21,401 bases of DNA from an uncultured Solibacteraceae bacterium. Its GTDB lineage: Bacteria > Acidobacteriota > Terriglobia > Bryobacterales > Bryobacteraceae. The notes under the pieces were generated by a model that was given only the letters and a program-made list of their open reading frames with translations, made no database searches and was not told the DNA's origin. Below are positions 3,570 to 11,381 of the stretch, one piece after another. Each line of letters begins with the position of its first letter. Positions within the stretch are counted from its first letter, which is position 1. The stretch is from the NCBI GenBank assembly GCA_964515555.1, contig CAZEVY010000094.1, forward strand, positions 1-21,401, given 5' to 3'. The position numbers and the translations under genes are program-made.

Positions 3570-4000
3570 ACAAGAAGCTGCGCCAGGCGAGGATTCTGAA
3601 GCTGATCGGCGCCGGCGGGATTCACACGCAGGAGGAGCTGGCGCGGGCGCTGGCGCGGGTGGGCGTGCAGACGACGCAGGTGACGCTGTCGCGCGACATC
3701 CACGAGCTGGGGCTGGTGAAGACGCCGCACGGGTACCGGCAGATGGGCGCCGCGAGCGCGGGTCCGCCGCTGGCGACGATGGCGGCGGAGTTTCTGACCG
3801 AGGTGAAGGTGGCGCAGAATCTGGTGGTGCTGCGCACGACGCCGGGCAACGCGAATTCGCTCGCTGTCGCGCTCGATCGGGAGGAGTGGGCGGACGTGAC
3901 GGGGACGATCGCGGGCGACGACACGGTGCTGGTGATCGCGCCGGACAAGGGGTCGGCGGCGCGGGTAGAGGTGCGGCTGCGGGAGATGATTGGGTCGTGA
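3566..4000 (+). CDS. argR: arginine repressor
   Basis: The 144 aa product has an N-terminal winged-helix region (ELARAL...VTQVTLSRDIHELGLVK). The C-terminal oligomerisation and arginine-binding motif GTIAGDDTVLVI is present. Its ATG overlaps the argH stop as ATGA. Confidence 0.85.
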   Translation: MNKKLRQARILKLIGAGGIHTQEELARALARVGVQTTQVTLSRDIHELGLVKTPHGYRQMGAASAGPPLATMAAEFLTEVKVAQNLVVLRTTPGNANSLAVALDREEWADVTGTIAGDDTVLVIAPDKGSAARVEVRLREMIGS

Positions 4001-4010
4001 ATGATATGGC

Positions 4011-4086
4011 CGCAGATGAACGCAGATTAACGCAGATGGGACAATCCTTTCAATCTTAATCTGTGTTCATCGGCATTCATCTGTGG
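4011..4086. repeat. AT-rich iteron-like array: three direct CGCAGAT repeats at 10-bp phasing, followed by two inverted ATCTGTG copies 20 bp apart
   Basis: The three direct CGCAGAT copies sit at 4012-4018, 4022-4028 and 4032-4038. Inverted copies ATCTGTG sit at 4060-4066 and 4080-4086, with TTCATC motifs at 4067-4072 and 4077-4082. Local GC is far below the window mean. The array lies between the convergent 3' ends of argR and vapC. Confidence 0.5.
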
Positions 4087-4169
4087 CCGGTAAATTCTAT
4101 TCGGGACAGGATACGAATGCGACCTCCACGATTGGATGTGTGAGGAGCGGGTCATGCCGCAACGCGCGA

Positions 4170-4529
4170 TCAAGCCAGCGGTACGACCTTCGACGCGAGC
4201 ATACGCCGGTCGCGGGTCACCAGCGGCGTTCCGTGACGAATGCTGGTCGCGGCGATGATCTCGTCGGCGGGGTCGGAGCGAAAATCGAGGCTGGCGAGAT
4301 GGCGGCACACTTCCAAATCGAGGGGAAAGATGACGACGGGCGCCAGGGCGCGGGCAAACTCCGCCGAATCGATATCCATCTCGATTCTTCCCAACTGAGC
4401 CAGCTTAGTAAGCTCCCATAAAACGATCGCGGAAATCGCCCATTGGTCCCCGGCAAGCAATCGATTCTCGCGTGCCGTCAACCGGCCCCCGAGCGCATGG
4501 ATCAGGATGTGCGTGTCAAGATTCAGCAT
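4170..4529 (-). CDS. vapC: PIN-domain toxin of a type II toxin-antitoxin pair (VapC-like)
   Basis: The 119 aa product has the N-terminal MLNLDTHILIHAL motif with the conserved acidic D. Its size and spacing fit a PIN nuclease. It overlaps the upstream antitoxin gene by 14 nt. Confidence 0.8.
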   Translation of the reverse strand: MLNLDTHILIHALGGRLTARENRLLAGDQWAISAIVLWELTKLAQLGRIEMDIDSAEFARALAPVVIFPLDLEVCRHLASLDFRSDPADEIIAATSIRHGTPLVTRDRRMLASKVVPLA

Positions 4530-4734
4530 CCCACTTCACCCCGGTCGAGAGGATGTCGCCGCGAACCTTGATTCTGCCCTTCAGGCTGCCAATGAGCGAA
4601 GCGCAGCTCTGGTTCGCTGGAAGCAGGCGGCCCACAGGCTTGCCGTGCTTGGTGATGACGATTCCGTCGGCGTCGAGACGATCGAGCAGGGAAAGACACT
4701 GCTCCTTGAATTTCGAGGCGCTGATGGTCCGCAC
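4516..4734 (-). CDS. Phd/YefM-family antitoxin partnered with vapC
   Basis: The 72 aa product contains ISASKFKEQCLSLLDRL...VITKHGKPVGRLLP, matching the Phd/YefM consensus (ISATEAR..LSELLD....VVITRHGKPVAVL). It has a GTG start. Its 3' end overlaps the vapC start. Confidence 0.75.
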   Translation of the reverse strand: MRTISASKFKEQCLSLLDRLDADGIVITKHGKPVGRLLPANQSCASLIGSLKGRIKVRGDILSTGVKWDAES

Positions 4735-4883
4735 GAGTCCATCCTAACAGATAAGCCACATATTATGACCAGTCACTTTTTCCGTCCACATGGCACTGAT
4801 GACGAAGGCGCTCTTTCGGTGGCTTTACCTGGCGCTGGCGGAATAGTCGGGGCCATCTTTCGATAAGCACCACAAGAAAGTGG

Positions 4884-4911
4884 TTGACAAATTCGAATGC
4901 GCCCCTATAAT
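4884..4911 (+). promoter_or_regulatory. near-consensus sigma70 promoter: TTGACA, 16-nt spacer, TATAAT
   Basis: TTGACA sits at 4884-4889 and TATAAT at 4906-4911, both exact hexamers. Both lie in an AT-rich patch of a GC-rich genome. The promoter points toward the tRNA-like element and the SPFH gene. Confidence 0.5.
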
Positions 4912-5024
4912 CGTAAAGAGTGAGGTCAATGCTTATGCACGCCTATGGTCGAGGTTCGAAAAGCCTCGCCGGTGCGGCTTCCCTGAAGCACCGCATGCCG
5001 GCGTGCGTCGGCGACTTCGCTGTC

Positions 5025-5096
5025 ACGCTCGTAGCTCAATTGCAGAGCACCGATCAGTTGAATCGGCGGTTGCGGGTTCGAATCCCGCCATTGAGT
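5025..5096 (+). tRNA. degenerate or chimeric tRNA-like element: a possible tRNA pseudogene or integration-site remnant, not a functional tRNA
   Basis: Cloverleaf spacing is canonical. Positions 8-9 are TA. The D-arm is GCTC/AATTGCA/GAGC. The anticodon arm is CCGAT/CAGTTGA/ATCGG. The T-arm GCGGG-TTCGAAT-CCCGC is perfect. The acceptor strands ACGCTCG and CATTGAG do not pair. Position 33 is A, so the loop is an Asn-GTT-like CAGTTGA with U33 changed to A and A37 changed to G. Confidence 0.35.
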
Positions 5097-5337
5097 CTGG
5101 TCGACAGCCAATAACACGCTGATCCGGGCACGCCCCGTCCGGTTCGACCGGAGGCGGCGGCCGTTGCCCTGAGCTTCCTGGAAACTGCCACCTACAACAC
5201 GAAGGCCGGAGTGTCCGCGCCCGCGGCGACGCCGAGGCCGAGTCGCGACGTGCGCTCATAGGGAACGCCCGCGGCGGCTGTCGTGGGGCAGGCCCGGGTC
5301 ATCGAAACAAACGATTCGAAGAGGGAGGTGGACGACA

Positions 5338-9432: not shown

Positions 9433-9637
9433 TTGTAGCCCTGCATAGCTGGAGTCAGGGGGTAATGGCGCTACGTGGTTACGGCCAGGTCGATCGGGTG
9501 GAAGCCTTCGGGCAGGTAGAGGCAGCCGCGCTGGAGCGGGTCGTCGTAGCGGGTGACGGTCCAGTCGAAGCCGAGCGAAGGCCTGTCAGCCCGTGGCGAA
9601 GACCGCTCCGTTGCGGTCGCGGCGCCGATTCGAGAGA

Positions 9638-9659
9638 GCCGCGCGCGTCGGCACGCGGC
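9638..9659. terminator. 9-bp GC hairpin with a 4-nt loop, 34 nt downstream of the small peptide gene stop
   Basis: GCCGCGCGC-GTCG-GCACGCGGC. A CCTTTTGG tract follows on the plus strand. An A-rich tract precedes it and a TCTCTC tract follows it on the minus strand. Confidence 0.35.
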
Positions 9660-9693
9660 CCTTTTGGACTTTCGCCATTGGGCGGCCGGACGG

Positions 9694-9990
9694 TCAGCAG
9701 CAGCCGGAGCCGCAGCAGCCCGCCGGCGCGTCGAGGCCGGTGTTCTCCGCCTCGGCGGCGGCCAACTTCGCGGACTGCTCCGCCTGCGGCGAACGGCGGC
9801 CGTACTTGGCCTGGAACCGTGCCTCCGCGCCGTTGTCGTTCGACGGCGCCGGCGCCGTCCGGGACCCGGCGGCATTCACCGTCGAGCTGCGGCCGTACTT
9901 CGCCTGAAACAGCGCCTGCGCGCCGTGGTCGCTCGCCGAGGCCAGCGACATCGCGCCAGCCGCCAGAATCAGTAACATCGTTTTTCTCAT
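9694..9990 (-). CDS. small secreted peptide (98 aa) with two internal repeats and a Cys-rich C-terminus GCCGSGCC
   Basis: A strong SD (GAAGGAG) sits 8 nt before the ATG. The signal peptide is MRKTMLLILAAGAMSLASA. Two repeats are present: DHGAQALFQAKYGRSS and NDNGAEARFQAKYGRRS. The C-terminal residues are C-C-G-S-G-C-C. Third-position GC is high. Confidence 0.6.
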   Translation of the reverse strand: MRKTMLLILAAGAMSLASASDHGAQALFQAKYGRSSTVNAAGSRTAPAPSNDNGAEARFQAKYGRRSPQAEQSAKLAAAEAENTGLDAPAGCCGSGCC

Positions 9991-10093
9991 TTTCGTTGCT
10001 CCTTCAAAGAGTTCCCGCGAATCTCCGCGGGCCGCCCCCATTCGGGCGGTGGCCGGAACCCGCCAACGCCACCGTTGGCATGACCGGCTGGAG

Positions 10094-10411
10094 CTAGATC
10101 AGGAGTGCGTGAATCTTCAGGTACAGGCGATGGGGCGGCGCCTCGAGGACCGGCGCGGCGAGACTGGATGTCATCAACACCGGCGCGGCCGCCGTCGGGG
10201 TGTGGACTCCTGCGTCCACTGCCTGCTTGCCCACGTGCCACACGGCCGGCGTTGAGCCGGACCCGCATGGTCCGATCGTGCAATCGGTTGCCGACGATGT
10301 CGTAGGAATCGGGCAGCAGTCGTGGCAGGCGGCGGGGATGGAAAGGGTGACCAGGGCGAGGAGCGCCAGGGTCGCCGGAAGGACCGCCCGAAGTCGCATA
10401 CGCCGTTTCAC
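10094..10411 (-). CDS. putative small secreted Cys-rich protein (105 aa). Alternative ATG start at 10399
   Basis: The signal-like N-terminus is MKRRMRLRAVLPATLALLALVTLSIPAAC. The mature part begins CHDCCPIP...DCTIGPCGSGST. A CGSG motif is shared with the adjacent peptide. An AGGAAA sits 10 nt before the GTG. Codon bias is moderate, so coding status is uncertain. Confidence 0.4.
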   Translation of the reverse strand: MKRRMRLRAVLPATLALLALVTLSIPAACHDCCPIPTTSSATDCTIGPCGSGSTPAVWHVGKQAVDAGVHTPTAAAPVLMTSSLAAPVLEAPPHRLYLKIHALLI

Positions 10412-10508
10412 CAGCAGGTTTCCTGCCAGGTTAGACGGCGTGCATCCTTTTACGTTTCGACAGTCCGGTTCCCGTGAACCGGGTGAAAAGACCCACCGCG
10501 CGATGGGC

Positions 10509-11381
10509 TCACCCAGCGCGCCGCTTCGCCTTCCAACTGTCGATGAACGTGGCCGCCACCTGCCGGCCCCGCGCGATCGCCTCGCCGTAGGCCAGCCGCC
10601 GCTCCTCGCGCGTCAACCCATAGCCGACGCGATAGAGCCGCTCCAGCGACAGCCCCGCGACGTAGGTGCCCGCGAAGGCGATCGCGGCCTTGGGAATCAC
10701 GCCGGCGCCGAATGGAATCTTGCCGGCCAGCTCGCGCGCCATGGTCCGCCATCCAAAGGCGCCCGCAATAATCCCCGCGATCTCCTTCTTCTGCTCGCGA
10801 TAGCCGACCGGCCGGTCGCTCGCCGCCGCCAGCAGGAACGCCATGCGGACCTGGTTCACCGTCAGCACCGCGGTGTCGGAGGCGGCTTCCGGCAGCGTCC
10901 ACGGCAGTGTCAGGCCCGGCGCCAGGTTGGGCAGCGCCGTGGCAATGGCGAACATGGCGTTCTCGCGCGCGATCGTCAGCATGACTTTGCCCGTCACGCC
11001 CGGGCGGAACGCCGGGAACATGCGCGCCAGCGCCAGCCCCTGGTCCTCCCGCTCGCGGAGGATCTCCTCGACCGCGAGCCCGGGCTGCGCTCTCAGGAAC
11101 ACGAAGCAACCGTCGGGCCGCGGCAGCCCTTCCTCGTAGATCTCGACGTCGCACTCCTCCGGCGCGCCCGGGTCGCCCTCCCGGAACAGCGCCCCGAAGA
11201 TCTCCTCGCGCTTCTTGCGCGAGATGGTCGCCGGCGCCAGAAAATCCTCCATGGCCGCGTAGCTTCGGCTGGTCGACGCCACCAGGCGCACACGCACCAG
11301 CCGCTCGGCGGAGTTGCGGACGTCTTGGGGATTCAGGTCCGAGATCGCATCGCGGACTTGCTGGAGGATTCGCGTTGCCAT
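10509..11381 (-). CDS. hypothetical protein with a C-terminal glycine-zipper region, possibly EcsC-like
   Basis: The 290 aa product has good GC3 codon bias. The C-terminal stretch is EIAGIIAGAFGW...GKIPFGAGVIPKAAIAFAGTYVAGLSLERLY. I cannot confidently assign a named family. Confidence 0.55.
   Translation of the reverse strand: MATRILQQVRDAISDLNPQDVRNSAERLVRVRLVASTSRSYAAMEDFLAPATISRKKREEIFGALFREGDPGAPEECDVEIYEEGLPRPDGCFVFLRAQPGLAVEEILREREDQGLALARMFPAFRPGVTGKVMLTIARENAMFAIATALPNLAPGLTLPWTLPEAASDTAVLTVNQVRMAFLLAAASDRPVGYREQKKEIAGIIAGAFGWRTMARELAGKIPFGAGVIPKAAIAFAGTYVAGLSLERLYRVGYGLTREERRLAYGEAIARGRQVAATFIDSWKAKRRAG

Follow-up and report, generated by a model that had tools for sequence, protein, structure and literature searches.

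A conserved, undescribed pair of small cysteine-containing protein genes in Acidobacteriota with a sigma-54-type promoter, a structured spacer and a plausible link to copper

The window analysed here is an entire contig of 21.4 kb and about 67% G+C (CAZEVY010000094.1, 21,401 nucleotides) from an uncultured Solibacteraceae bacterium, and its minus strand carries two small tandem open reading frames (ORFs), here called pep1 and pep2, followed by a gene for a Ser/Thr kinase. Comparison with related sequences identifies pep1 and pep2 as a conserved, undescribed and partly unannotated two-gene unit of Acidobacteriota, preceded by a sigma-54-type promoter that is itself conserved across loci, and the fold of the spacer between the two genes suggests that their translation is coupled. 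The cassette appears to be self-contained and not an appendage of the kinase, with the window carrying the core pair alone in a housekeeping neighbourhood, and we put at roughly one in two the probability that the pair serves in envelope copper or soft-metal handling, a role we consider more likely than signalling to the kinase. A preliminary description of this stretch had instead proposed the two products as cognate ligands, or as a metal- or redox-sensing input module, of the adjacent kinase; the positions and order of its ORFs, the hairpin and the kinase with its TPR-containing half are as it described them, and its metal idea fits the copper islands found around relatives of the pair, whereas the kinase link lacks synteny and is not supported by what follows.

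Features of the cassette and its flanks (aa, amino acids; nt, nucleotides):
10509-11381, minus strand: ORF of 290 aa, upstream of the cassette
10465-10489, minus strand: upstream box TTTTCACCCGGTTCACGGGAACCGG with the inverted repeat CCGGTTC-N4-GAACCGG
10413-10428, minus strand: sigma-54-type -24/-12 promoter element TGGCAGGAAACCTGCT
10094-10411, minus strand: pep1, 105 aa from a GTG start, or 101 aa from ATG 10399
9991-10093, minus strand: pep1-pep2 spacer, 103 nt, structured
9694-9990, minus strand: pep2, 98 aa, ATG start
9635-9662, minus strand: hairpin with a 12-bp G+C-rich stem, 32 nt past the pep2 stop codon
6553-9432, minus strand: Ser/Thr kinase, 959 aa

Conservation of the pair and its two protein families

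Reading the DNA upstream of pep2-family genes, we found that 14 other independent loci carry a pep1-like ORF directly upstream in the same orientation; the loci that bear the pair are L001, L002, L004, L005/6, L007/8, L009/10, L011, L012, L014, L015, L016, L017, L018, L019/20 and L021/22. A lack of such conservation or synteny was among the outcomes that the preliminary description had named as fatal to its proposal, and the pair has instead proved conserved. Between two related loci the ratio of nonsynonymous to synonymous polymorphism (pN/pS) is 0.22 for pep1 and 0.39 for pep2, values that place both genes under purifying selection. L003, where the pep2-family gene is of a type that lacks Cys and little context is available, showed no pep1-like ORF, and L021, likewise with a Cys-free pep2, has a diverged pep1-like ORF ending THSLLI. 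All context statistics given here rest on about 15 loci; scans of sequence collections yielded few (one three-sequence alignment gave 32 pattern matches, none of them confirmed, another alignment gave two loci, and metagenomes gave four short ones).

That one or both ORFs are chance open frames in G+C-rich DNA, and unexpressed, is scarcely credible. It is true that pep1 is missing from the protein database in which neighbours from the same contig are found, and that many spurious long ORFs overlap the cassette region; against this stand the protein-level conservation in 14 other loci despite diverged DNA, the pN/pS values just given, and the placement of a conserved promoter and a Shine-Dalgarno-sequestering helix exactly around both frames. 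The codon periodicity points the same way, with G+C at third codon positions (GC3) reaching 0.90 in pep2 against 0.62 and 0.63 at positions 1 and 2, and standing at 0.79 in pep1, 0.77 in the kinase gene and 0.58-0.68 in the overlapping alternative ORFs, so that both small ORFs are marked as coding by their third-position G+C. The coding signal of the 105-aa ORF, which had been left to comparative alignment, is thus borne out by its conserved motifs as well as by its pN/pS.

The window pep1 reads ...AACHDCCP...DCTIGPC...HRLYLKIHALLI, with the motifs C-HDCCP and C-x4-C and the C-terminal HRLYLKIHALLI. Because the sigma-54-type promoter ends 2 nt before GTG 10411, the start is likely ATG 10399, which gives a protein of 101 aa beginning with MRLRAVLPATLALL. 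Its relatives are ORFs of 100-124 aa in which inspection finds a basic and then hydrophobic N terminus, and their alignment gives a constant order: a hydrophobic segment ending in Cys, (A)HPCCP, 8-10 residues, C-x3-GC, a variable Pro/Ala-rich stretch, and R-x-L-x-L-H-Q-L-L-I. Proteins of this layout would be exported or membrane-anchored. The conserved Cys at the end of the hydrophobic segment also raised the possibility of a lipoprotein; the lipobox does not fit, because position -1 is often V or I.

Neither pep1 nor twelve of its relatives matched a Pfam, NCBIfam or PDB profile (PDB at E <= 10), and a word-indexed protein search with pep1 returned no match, not even pep1 itself. Since pep2 and the 290-aa protein of the same NCBI contig are present in that database, pep1 appears to be unannotated. 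Gene callers often missed pep1-type ORFs or called the opposite strand (as at L002:1431-1739, L007:6561-6938 and L015:4350-4616), and annotation pipelines would benefit from a model for these systematically overlooked genes.

pep2, by contrast to its partner, is annotated in NCBI (P0001). Its N terminus, MRK-TMLLILAAGAMSL-ASA|SD, has, like that of pep1, one or two basic residues, a hydrophobic stretch and a small-residue site, and the signal peptides that had been claimed for both products are borne out by inspection, both having been judged by eye. The window protein further consists of two helix-turn-helix repeats (ALFQAKYGRSS and ARFQAKYGRRSPQAEQ) and a tail, GCCGSGCC, and the repeat is visible in the DNA as well (73 nt, 78% identity, spacing 93). 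The C-G-S-G core that the preliminary description saw in both products is present, as GPCGSGST and GCCGSGCC, along with two FQAKYGR repeats; as a common family feature it was rejected, pep1 relatives having C-x3-GC at that place and most pep2 relatives ending in CxHxCCKH.

A word-indexed protein search with pep2 found two distant relatives only, and a HMMER profile of those three sequences then retrieved 212 cluster representatives (50% identity) at E <= 0.001, of which 55 reached E <= 1e-10; the family size of at least 212 clusters at 50% identity is a lower bound. A profile search of a 90%-identity database gave 206 pep2-family proteins. Their labels are "hypothetical" or nameless, bar one "cytochrome c5", and the named sources are Bryobacteraceae, Solibacteraceae and Terriglobia. 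The common plan is a signal peptide, one to three units of about 30 aa, CC-containing linkers (GCCxHM and KCxELGxC, for example) and a C-terminal Cys/His tail, where the repeat unit is ND-GAEERFRMKYGR-TPAEEARQ (the "AEERFRMKYGRxTPAEEAR" type) and the usual C terminus is ...LLASA...C-x-H-x-C-C-K-H, a Cx3CC(K)H form. A signal-like N terminus is found in 215 of 245 members and Cys in 198 of 245, the modal Cys count being 7; Cx(2-4)CC occurs within the last 16 residues in 153 of the 245, with a nearby His in 117 of those 153. About one fifth of the family is Cys-free and keeps the repeats alone.

An AlphaFold2 model of pep2 (36 relatives; mean predicted local distance difference test score, pLDDT, 70) has helices at residues 22-32, 53-63 and 68-83, a helix-turn-helix per repeat; pLDDT peaks at 93 in repeat 2, and the Cys tail is left unstructured. 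No match to pep2 came from Pfam, NCBIfam or PDB sequence profiles (PDB at E <= 10) or from a Foldseek search of PDB, ten of its relatives yielded nothing but sub-threshold noise from Pfam and NCBIfam, and we found no description of either family in the literature. The earlier judgement that neither product belongs to a described family therefore stands, there being no Pfam, NCBIfam or PDB match for either, and among known families neither a copper chaperone nor a metallothionein, the two suggested as possible homologues, is matched.

A relative from Terriglobia (L004:9944-10336) has a single repeat, a Met-rich MAGMKGMAGMKGM insert (MAGMKGM) and a tail, AGCCGTGCCKHGE, resembling the AGCCGSGCC of the window protein; a Met-rich stretch, MAGMKCMQNGGMKGMAGMKGMSGMASKMAMP, follows its repeat. 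Stretches rich in Met are characteristic of segments that bind Cu(I). The Cys-free subfamily (P0014, P0016, P0022, P0024 and others, with L003:1579-1935 and L021:5984-6412) consists of W-x-x-W-[FY]-x-A-K-[YF]-G-R-x-S-P-x-E-E-A-R repeats only.

Two cassettes, L018:7424-8567 and L005:6439-7567, are about 90% identical at the protein level and stand in unrelated contexts, that of L018 lying between transposase genes (DDE_Tnp_IS240 and Transposase_mut) and lacking the MacB-type module described below. The near identity of these cassettes, and the transposases beside one of them, suggest that the pair is movable as a unit.

Promoter and spacer RNA

Across a 12-locus alignment, TGG and TGC are invariant at -24/-12 spacing, and 12 of 15 loci have TGG[CT]-N8-TGC shortly before the pep1-like ORF, against a background expectation of 0.02 per 80 nt; in 10 of those 12 it lies 2-16 nt ahead of an in-frame start codon. 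With GG at -24, GC at -12, the canonical spacing TGGCAC-N5-TTGCW and conservation upstream of the operon, the sequence evidence is that of a sigma-54-type promoter that precedes pep1 and is conserved across loci. In the window this promoter stands between the 290-aa ORF and pep1. If the spacing to the transcription start is standard, that start would fall only 3-16 nt ahead of the pep1 start codon and the pep1 mRNA would be near-leaderless; in the window such spacing rules out GTG 10411 in favour of ATG 10399. Further upstream, TTTCACCCnGTTCACG recurs at a similar distance from the promoter in the window, L005, L018 and L014 and, in weaker form, in L011 and L019, and the box at 10465-10489 may be a candidate site for a sigma-54 activator. 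A gene for such an activator (a Sigma54_activat response regulator) adjoins the pair only in L021/22.

The spacer that follows pep1 in the window is closed by a helix in which GCUCC (10090-10094), including the G of the pep1 stop codon, pairs with GGAGC (9998-10002), which is the pep2 Shine-Dalgarno sequence; three hairpins lie within it. The fold has a minimum free energy of -58.7 kcal/mol (z = -3.66), and none of 200 shuffled sequences folded as well. The probability that the pep2 Shine-Dalgarno pairs with the first 30 nt past the pep1 stop is 1.00 in the window, with 11 of 13 loci giving 0.88 or more, and the flanks of the closing helix vary between loci with pairing preserved, for example as GACAUCUCC/GGAGAUGUC and GACUUUUCCC/GGGAGAAGUC. 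That the ribosome-binding site of pep2 pairs with the bases right after the pep1 stop suggests translational coupling from pep1 to pep2, and this is the simplest reading of the fold, in which the 5' strand of the helix would lie beneath a ribosome that terminates on pep1. The "excellent" Shine-Dalgarno and strong GC3 from which the preliminary description had argued for pep2 expression are both present (AAGGAG, 7 nt upstream of the ATG, and the GC3 of 0.90 given above), the former being predicted, in addition, to be sequestered.

In ten loci the spacer takes a canonical form that consists of the hairpins UCCGA-NCGCGC-UCGGA and GUGCGG-...GCGCG...-CCGCAC, whose loops are complementary:
L005:6921-6976
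L009:6922-6976
L016:7919-7973
L019:7921-7976
also in L002, L011, L012, L014, L015 and L018

When the ten sequences are aligned, 90.5% of cells pair, and five pairs have double-sided changes compared with 1.3 +/- 1.0 in shuffles, none of 500 of which reached five; the loop-loop helix is 100% paired and has two independent compensatory changes. Rfam 15 at gathering score matched only tRNA in the window and the ten loci, so that the spacer element is absent from Rfam, and a covariance model built from the element matches only those pep1-pep2 spacers. We regard it as a candidate new cis-regulatory element before pep2-family genes, and its hairpins or pseudoknot could provide extra control by a ligand or protein. 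The same covariance model did not find the canonical element in the window, which retains only the Shine-Dalgarno-sequestering helix.

Copper neighbourhoods, the proposed function and its rivals

Three loci place the pair in clear copper islands. The one at L005/6 comprises a multicopper oxidase, OEP, CusB/CzcB and ACR_tran (a resistance-nodulation-division, RND, pump), arranged divergently; that at L019/20 has two multicopper oxidases, DUF411 (CopG-type), OEP, a YHS/HMBD P-type ATPase (CopA-type), YHS and a CsoR-type repressor; and that at L021/22 has YHS, DUF411, OEP and a multicopper oxidase with a CusF domain, adjoining the sigma-54 response regulator and a putative sensor.

At five independent loci (L002, L005/6, L009/10, L016 and L019/20) the pair runs directly into a conserved five-gene module (L005:7635-11932, for example), the products of which are, in order:
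protein 1, about 400-428 aa: hydrophobic N-terminal segment, ends ...YYFYR; possibly an outer-membrane protein
protein 2, about 225-234 aa: no family match
protein 3, 123 aa: weak OB-fold/DUF4920/DUF5818 signal
protein 4: MacB_PCD/FtsX permease
protein 5: LolD/MacB-like ATPase, resembling the ATPases of bacteriocin and darobactin exporters among many others

Apart from the weak hint for the 123-aa protein, proteins 1-3 matched no Pfam or NCBIfam family. Judging from a hydrophobic N-terminal segment, the products of the L005 module other than the ATP-binding cassette (ABC) ATPase are probably extracytoplasmic. A tblastn search found no counterpart of the module in the window, and about half of the loci, the window among them, are without a MacB-type transporter.

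CC doublets with His or Pro, Cx3CC(K)H tails, CxHxCCKH, CCxHM/GCCxHM and Met-rich inserts are typical of soft-metal sites. It is this motif chemistry, together with the export signals, the copper neighbours in three loci and the tight logic of co-expression, that leads us to favour envelope copper or soft-metal handling as the function of the pair. An enhancer-binding activator would turn on the promoter under stress, most likely an excess of copper or another thiophilic metal, whereupon ribosomes finishing pep1 would open the closing helix, exposing the pep2 Shine-Dalgarno, and both proteins would be made together and exported by Sec. Given its signal or anchor segment and its C...HxCCP...C-x4-C cluster, pep1 may be a small chaperone or relay of the Cu(I) type, as proposed for CutF/DUF2946; pep2, in which a flexible Cys(/His) tail is joined to helical-hairpin repeats, may be soluble in the periplasm and bind or buffer the metal there, much as SilE/PcoE do but through thiolates. 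In the fuller systems a putative outer-membrane protein, two small periplasmic proteins and the MacB-type ABC machine may then remove the loaded protein or the metal. The whole of this picture, that is, an undescribed sigma-54-controlled envelope copper (soft-metal) system, seen so far only in Acidobacteriota, with a near-leaderless pep1 relay, a coupled thiolate-tailed pep2, a canonical pseudoknotted RNA leader as a possible new riboregulator, and a MacB machine that with three family-less proteins disposes of loaded binder or metal across the outer membrane, is a distinctly more tentative proposal than the metal-handling role itself.

Several observations weigh against a role in metal handling. 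The scanned ORFs of the window include neither metal genes nor a sigma-54 activator gene. Clear copper islands account for only three of about 12 informative loci, the remaining loci being uninformative, with L015 (an RND pump) and L016 (a P-type ATPase fragment and Rrf2) suggestive only. Neither pep1 nor pep2 has a Pfam-A match at E <= 1 to metallothionein, HMA/CopZ, CusF, CopC or SilE/PcoE, and the PDB profile searches and the Foldseek search turned up no metal-binding fold. The window pep2 is itself a short member that has lost the internal CC motifs and retains only the four-Cys tail, and Cys residues in the oxidising periplasm may simply form disulfides. Finally, because a Cys-free subfamily exists, one member of it (L021) within a copper island, the repeat must do something beyond metal binding by Cys.

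The same Cys-free subfamily, in which the repeats are kept, is consistent with the pair being a general envelope-stress or thiol-redox device, a thiol buffer or chaperone-like, that is unspecific for metals and meets copper genes through co-regulation by envelope stress. The modal count of seven Cys, an odd number and hence compatible with reactive thiols, would suit such a device, as would an extracytoplasmic function (ECF) sigma/anti-sigma pair near the L001 cassette, an ECF sigma gene in L018, peptidase M48 and HSP20 near the L016 pair, and the LiaF-like and LytS/LytTR cell-envelope stress genes divergent from the cassette in the window. These stress neighbours are not recurrent, however, the neighbours in three loci are copper-specific (CsoR, the CopA-type ATPase with YHS/HMBD, multicopper oxidases, CusF and DUF411), and the Cys/His/Met motifs are of the kind associated in general with soft-metal sites; we consider a metal-unspecific device rather unlikely.

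The MacB-type module bears on a further alternative, in which pep2 is a polyprotein or a precursor akin to those of RiPPs (peptides made by the ribosome and modified after translation), processed or modified and its product exported via the MacB-type ABC machine and the outer-membrane protein as an extracellular metallophore-like or antimicrobial peptide, with pep1 as an accessory or immunity protein. The pep2 repeats close with a basic GR site and are separated and followed by Cys-rich segments, the MacB/LolCDE-type permease and ATPase lie downstream in five loci with the ATPase resembling bacteriocin/darobactin exporters, S8 peptidases occur near the pair in L001 and L017, and bufferins set a precedent for copper-binding RiPPs with a Sec signal (PMC11626156). 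The precomputed Pfam calls of the loci contain no recognisable modifying enzyme (MNIO/DUF692, radical SAM, YcaO, LanM-type or the like), no NCBIfam model of a RiPP precursor (NHLP, Nif11, SCIFF and others) was matched at E <= 1 beyond noise, and the best-conserved part of pep2 is the helical repeat and not a segment resembling a core peptide. The reading of the L005 module products, bar the ATPase, as probably extracytoplasmic also tells against a modified precursor, as does the want of a transporter in about half of the loci, and we judge this alternative improbable.

The kinase of the window, for its part, combines a Pkinase domain (residues 34-279) with a single hydrophobic segment around residues 315-335; its C-terminal half, about 620 aa long, gave TPR matches. 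Residues 323-851 are similar to the part of TIGR04510 ("putative peptide modification system cyclase") that lies outside the catalytic region (E = 1.2e-42), the score of 146.5 bits against a cut-off of 400 denoting likeness at the domain level and not membership; for TIGR03903 (TOMM_kin_cyc) the score is 163.1 bits against a cut-off of 705.75. An extracytoplasmic sensor of this type may be common to kinases and cyclases that Haft-type models link to modified peptides.

That pep1 and pep2 are ligands or a metal/redox input module of this kinase, bound by its periplasmic TPR region, draws on the adjacency and common orientation in the window, on the large extracytoplasmic TPR-containing region, and on the resemblance of that region to TIGR04510, a family named for its association with modified peptides. 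The resemblance falls far short of the cut-off of 400 bits, and the co-occurrence of the peptides with Ser/Thr kinase genes that this idea predicts was not found: none of the 14 other independent loci has a kinase adjacent to the pair, nor the sensor domain of the window kinase. When the catalytic domain, the sensor half, the 290-aa protein, LiaF and LytS were searched by tblastn against all loci, the sole match was the catalytic domain in L017, where a kinase with a different sensor (a beta-propeller, PD40/Tricorn-type) lies 3 kb upstream of the pair. The cassette moreover has its own conserved promoter, and in the window it ends in a stable hairpin (9635-9662) within a gap of 260 nt between pep2 and the kinase gene. 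We therefore hold the ligand reading to be very doubtful and the kinase next door to be most likely a coincidental neighbour, which makes this locus a poor model for peptide-to-kinase signalling.

The post-pep2 hairpin was missed by a terminator scan, because it has no T-run. A comparable hairpin follows pep2 in L007, and that of the window is possibly a terminator or an mRNA-stabilising end of the cassette.

Relation to known systems and other features of the window

Envelope copper handling by small exported Cys proteins has precedents, and the nearest to pep1 is CutF of Rhodobacter capsulatus, a hard-to-detect protein of 118 aa with a Sec signal and a Cys motif that heads the copper operon cutFOG (PMC8456105). 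The spacer after cutF contains a copper-responsive stem-loop and integrity of the operon in cis is required, while CutF-like proteins are recognised by a length below 170 aa with a signal peptide, a central CXXXC (or CXXC) and a C-terminal PP motif (PMC8456105). Like these, pep1 is a first operon gene for a protein of about 100-120 aa with a Sec-type signal and a central Cys motif, has little or no Pfam coverage and is easily missed in annotation; the stretch leading to the second gene holds a structured RNA, the evidence points to a need for first and second genes to be expressed in cis, and some relatives of pep1 occur in copper neighbourhoods (L005/6, L019/20 and L021/22), though not in the window or several other loci. 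Unlike them, pep1 has HPCCP and C-x4-C in place of CXXXC/CXXC and a hydrophobic HQLLI C terminus in place of the PP motif, is partnered by pep2 and not by a multicopper oxidase, and comes from Acidobacteriota and not Proteobacteria; DUF2946 (PF11162) was matched by 0 of 12 pep1-family members at E <= 1. Since pep1 lacks the defining features of the family, CutF is an analogy for it and not a family to which it belongs.

For pep2 the comparison is with SilE and PcoE, the "metal sponge" proteins with Met/His motifs that silver and copper resistance islands encode for the periplasm. pep2 resembles them in being small, in its signal peptide, in being largely flexible with repeated short helices and motifs of soft-metal type, and in having relatives in metal-resistance islands. 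No homology was detected, however; the ligands of pep2 would be Cys (CC, Cx3CC) with some His/Met, its RFxxKYGR-TPAEEAR repeat has no counterpart in SilE/PcoE, and Cys-free pep2 members exist.

Bufferins (BufA: DUF2282 / BUF_6/12Cys) are defined by the MNIO (DUF692) and DUF2063 enzymes of their operons and by thiooxazole formation (PMC11626156). They share with the pair that they are Sec-exported small Cys proteins implicated in periplasmic copper buffering and sometimes placed under alternative sigma factors. MNIO (DUF692) and DUF2063 are absent from the precomputed Pfam calls of the loci and from the scanned window ORFs, and there is no DUF2282 match; the absence of these defining genes excludes the pair from the bufferin family.

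ABC systems of the MacB/LolCDE type (type VII) extract or expel periplasmic cargo. The downstream module of the five related loci has the corresponding MacB_PCD/FtsX permease and LolD/MacB-like ATPase and differs in having three family-less conserved proteins instead of an HlyD-type adaptor; as stated, the window lacks the module altogether. Translational coupling by long-range sequestration of a downstream ribosome-binding site is likewise a classical mechanism, and in 11 of 13 loci the partner strand of the pep2 Shine-Dalgarno falls within the stretch that a ribosome would occupy while terminating at the pep1 stop. The departure from the classical case is that pep1 and pep2 lie 73-145 nt apart with structured hairpins between them and, in ten loci, a loop-loop pseudoknot.

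What is new here is the two protein families and the way they are arranged, under a functional theme already known; the motifs and neighbourhoods make a copper link plausible. Acidobacteriota are among the most abundant soil bacteria, and their metal homeostasis is almost unstudied. If the copper reading is true, two new protein families, comprising at least 200 sequence clusters that are now "hypothetical" or unannotated, join periplasmic copper handling, and the pair would be a tangible example of translational coupling by RNA structure working together with sigma-54 control; it would also draw attention to a MacB-type module that has gone unrecognised and to a structured RNA that may be new.

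Around the cassette, the 290-aa ORF, called a glycine-zipper protein in the preliminary description, matched no Pfam or NCBIfam family, and tblastn found a counterpart in none of the related loci. The other genes of the contig are of a housekeeping kind, namely argF/G/H/R, Band-7, the LiaF-like genes, the LytS/LytTR pair, GSDH, DHDPS, ATP synthase a/c and dCTP deaminase.

Positions 4000-5300 of the window have a lower G+C (0.56-0.60). A PIN/VapC-like ORF (4170-4529, minus strand) there overlaps a Phd/YefM-like antitoxin ORF (4516-4734, minus strand), both assigned by eye, and a tRNA-like sequence at 5031-5089 (plus strand), not called by ARAGORN, matches positions 7-64 of the Rfam tRNA model with 39.9 bits. 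One possibility is that a small element has integrated here next to a truncated tRNA.

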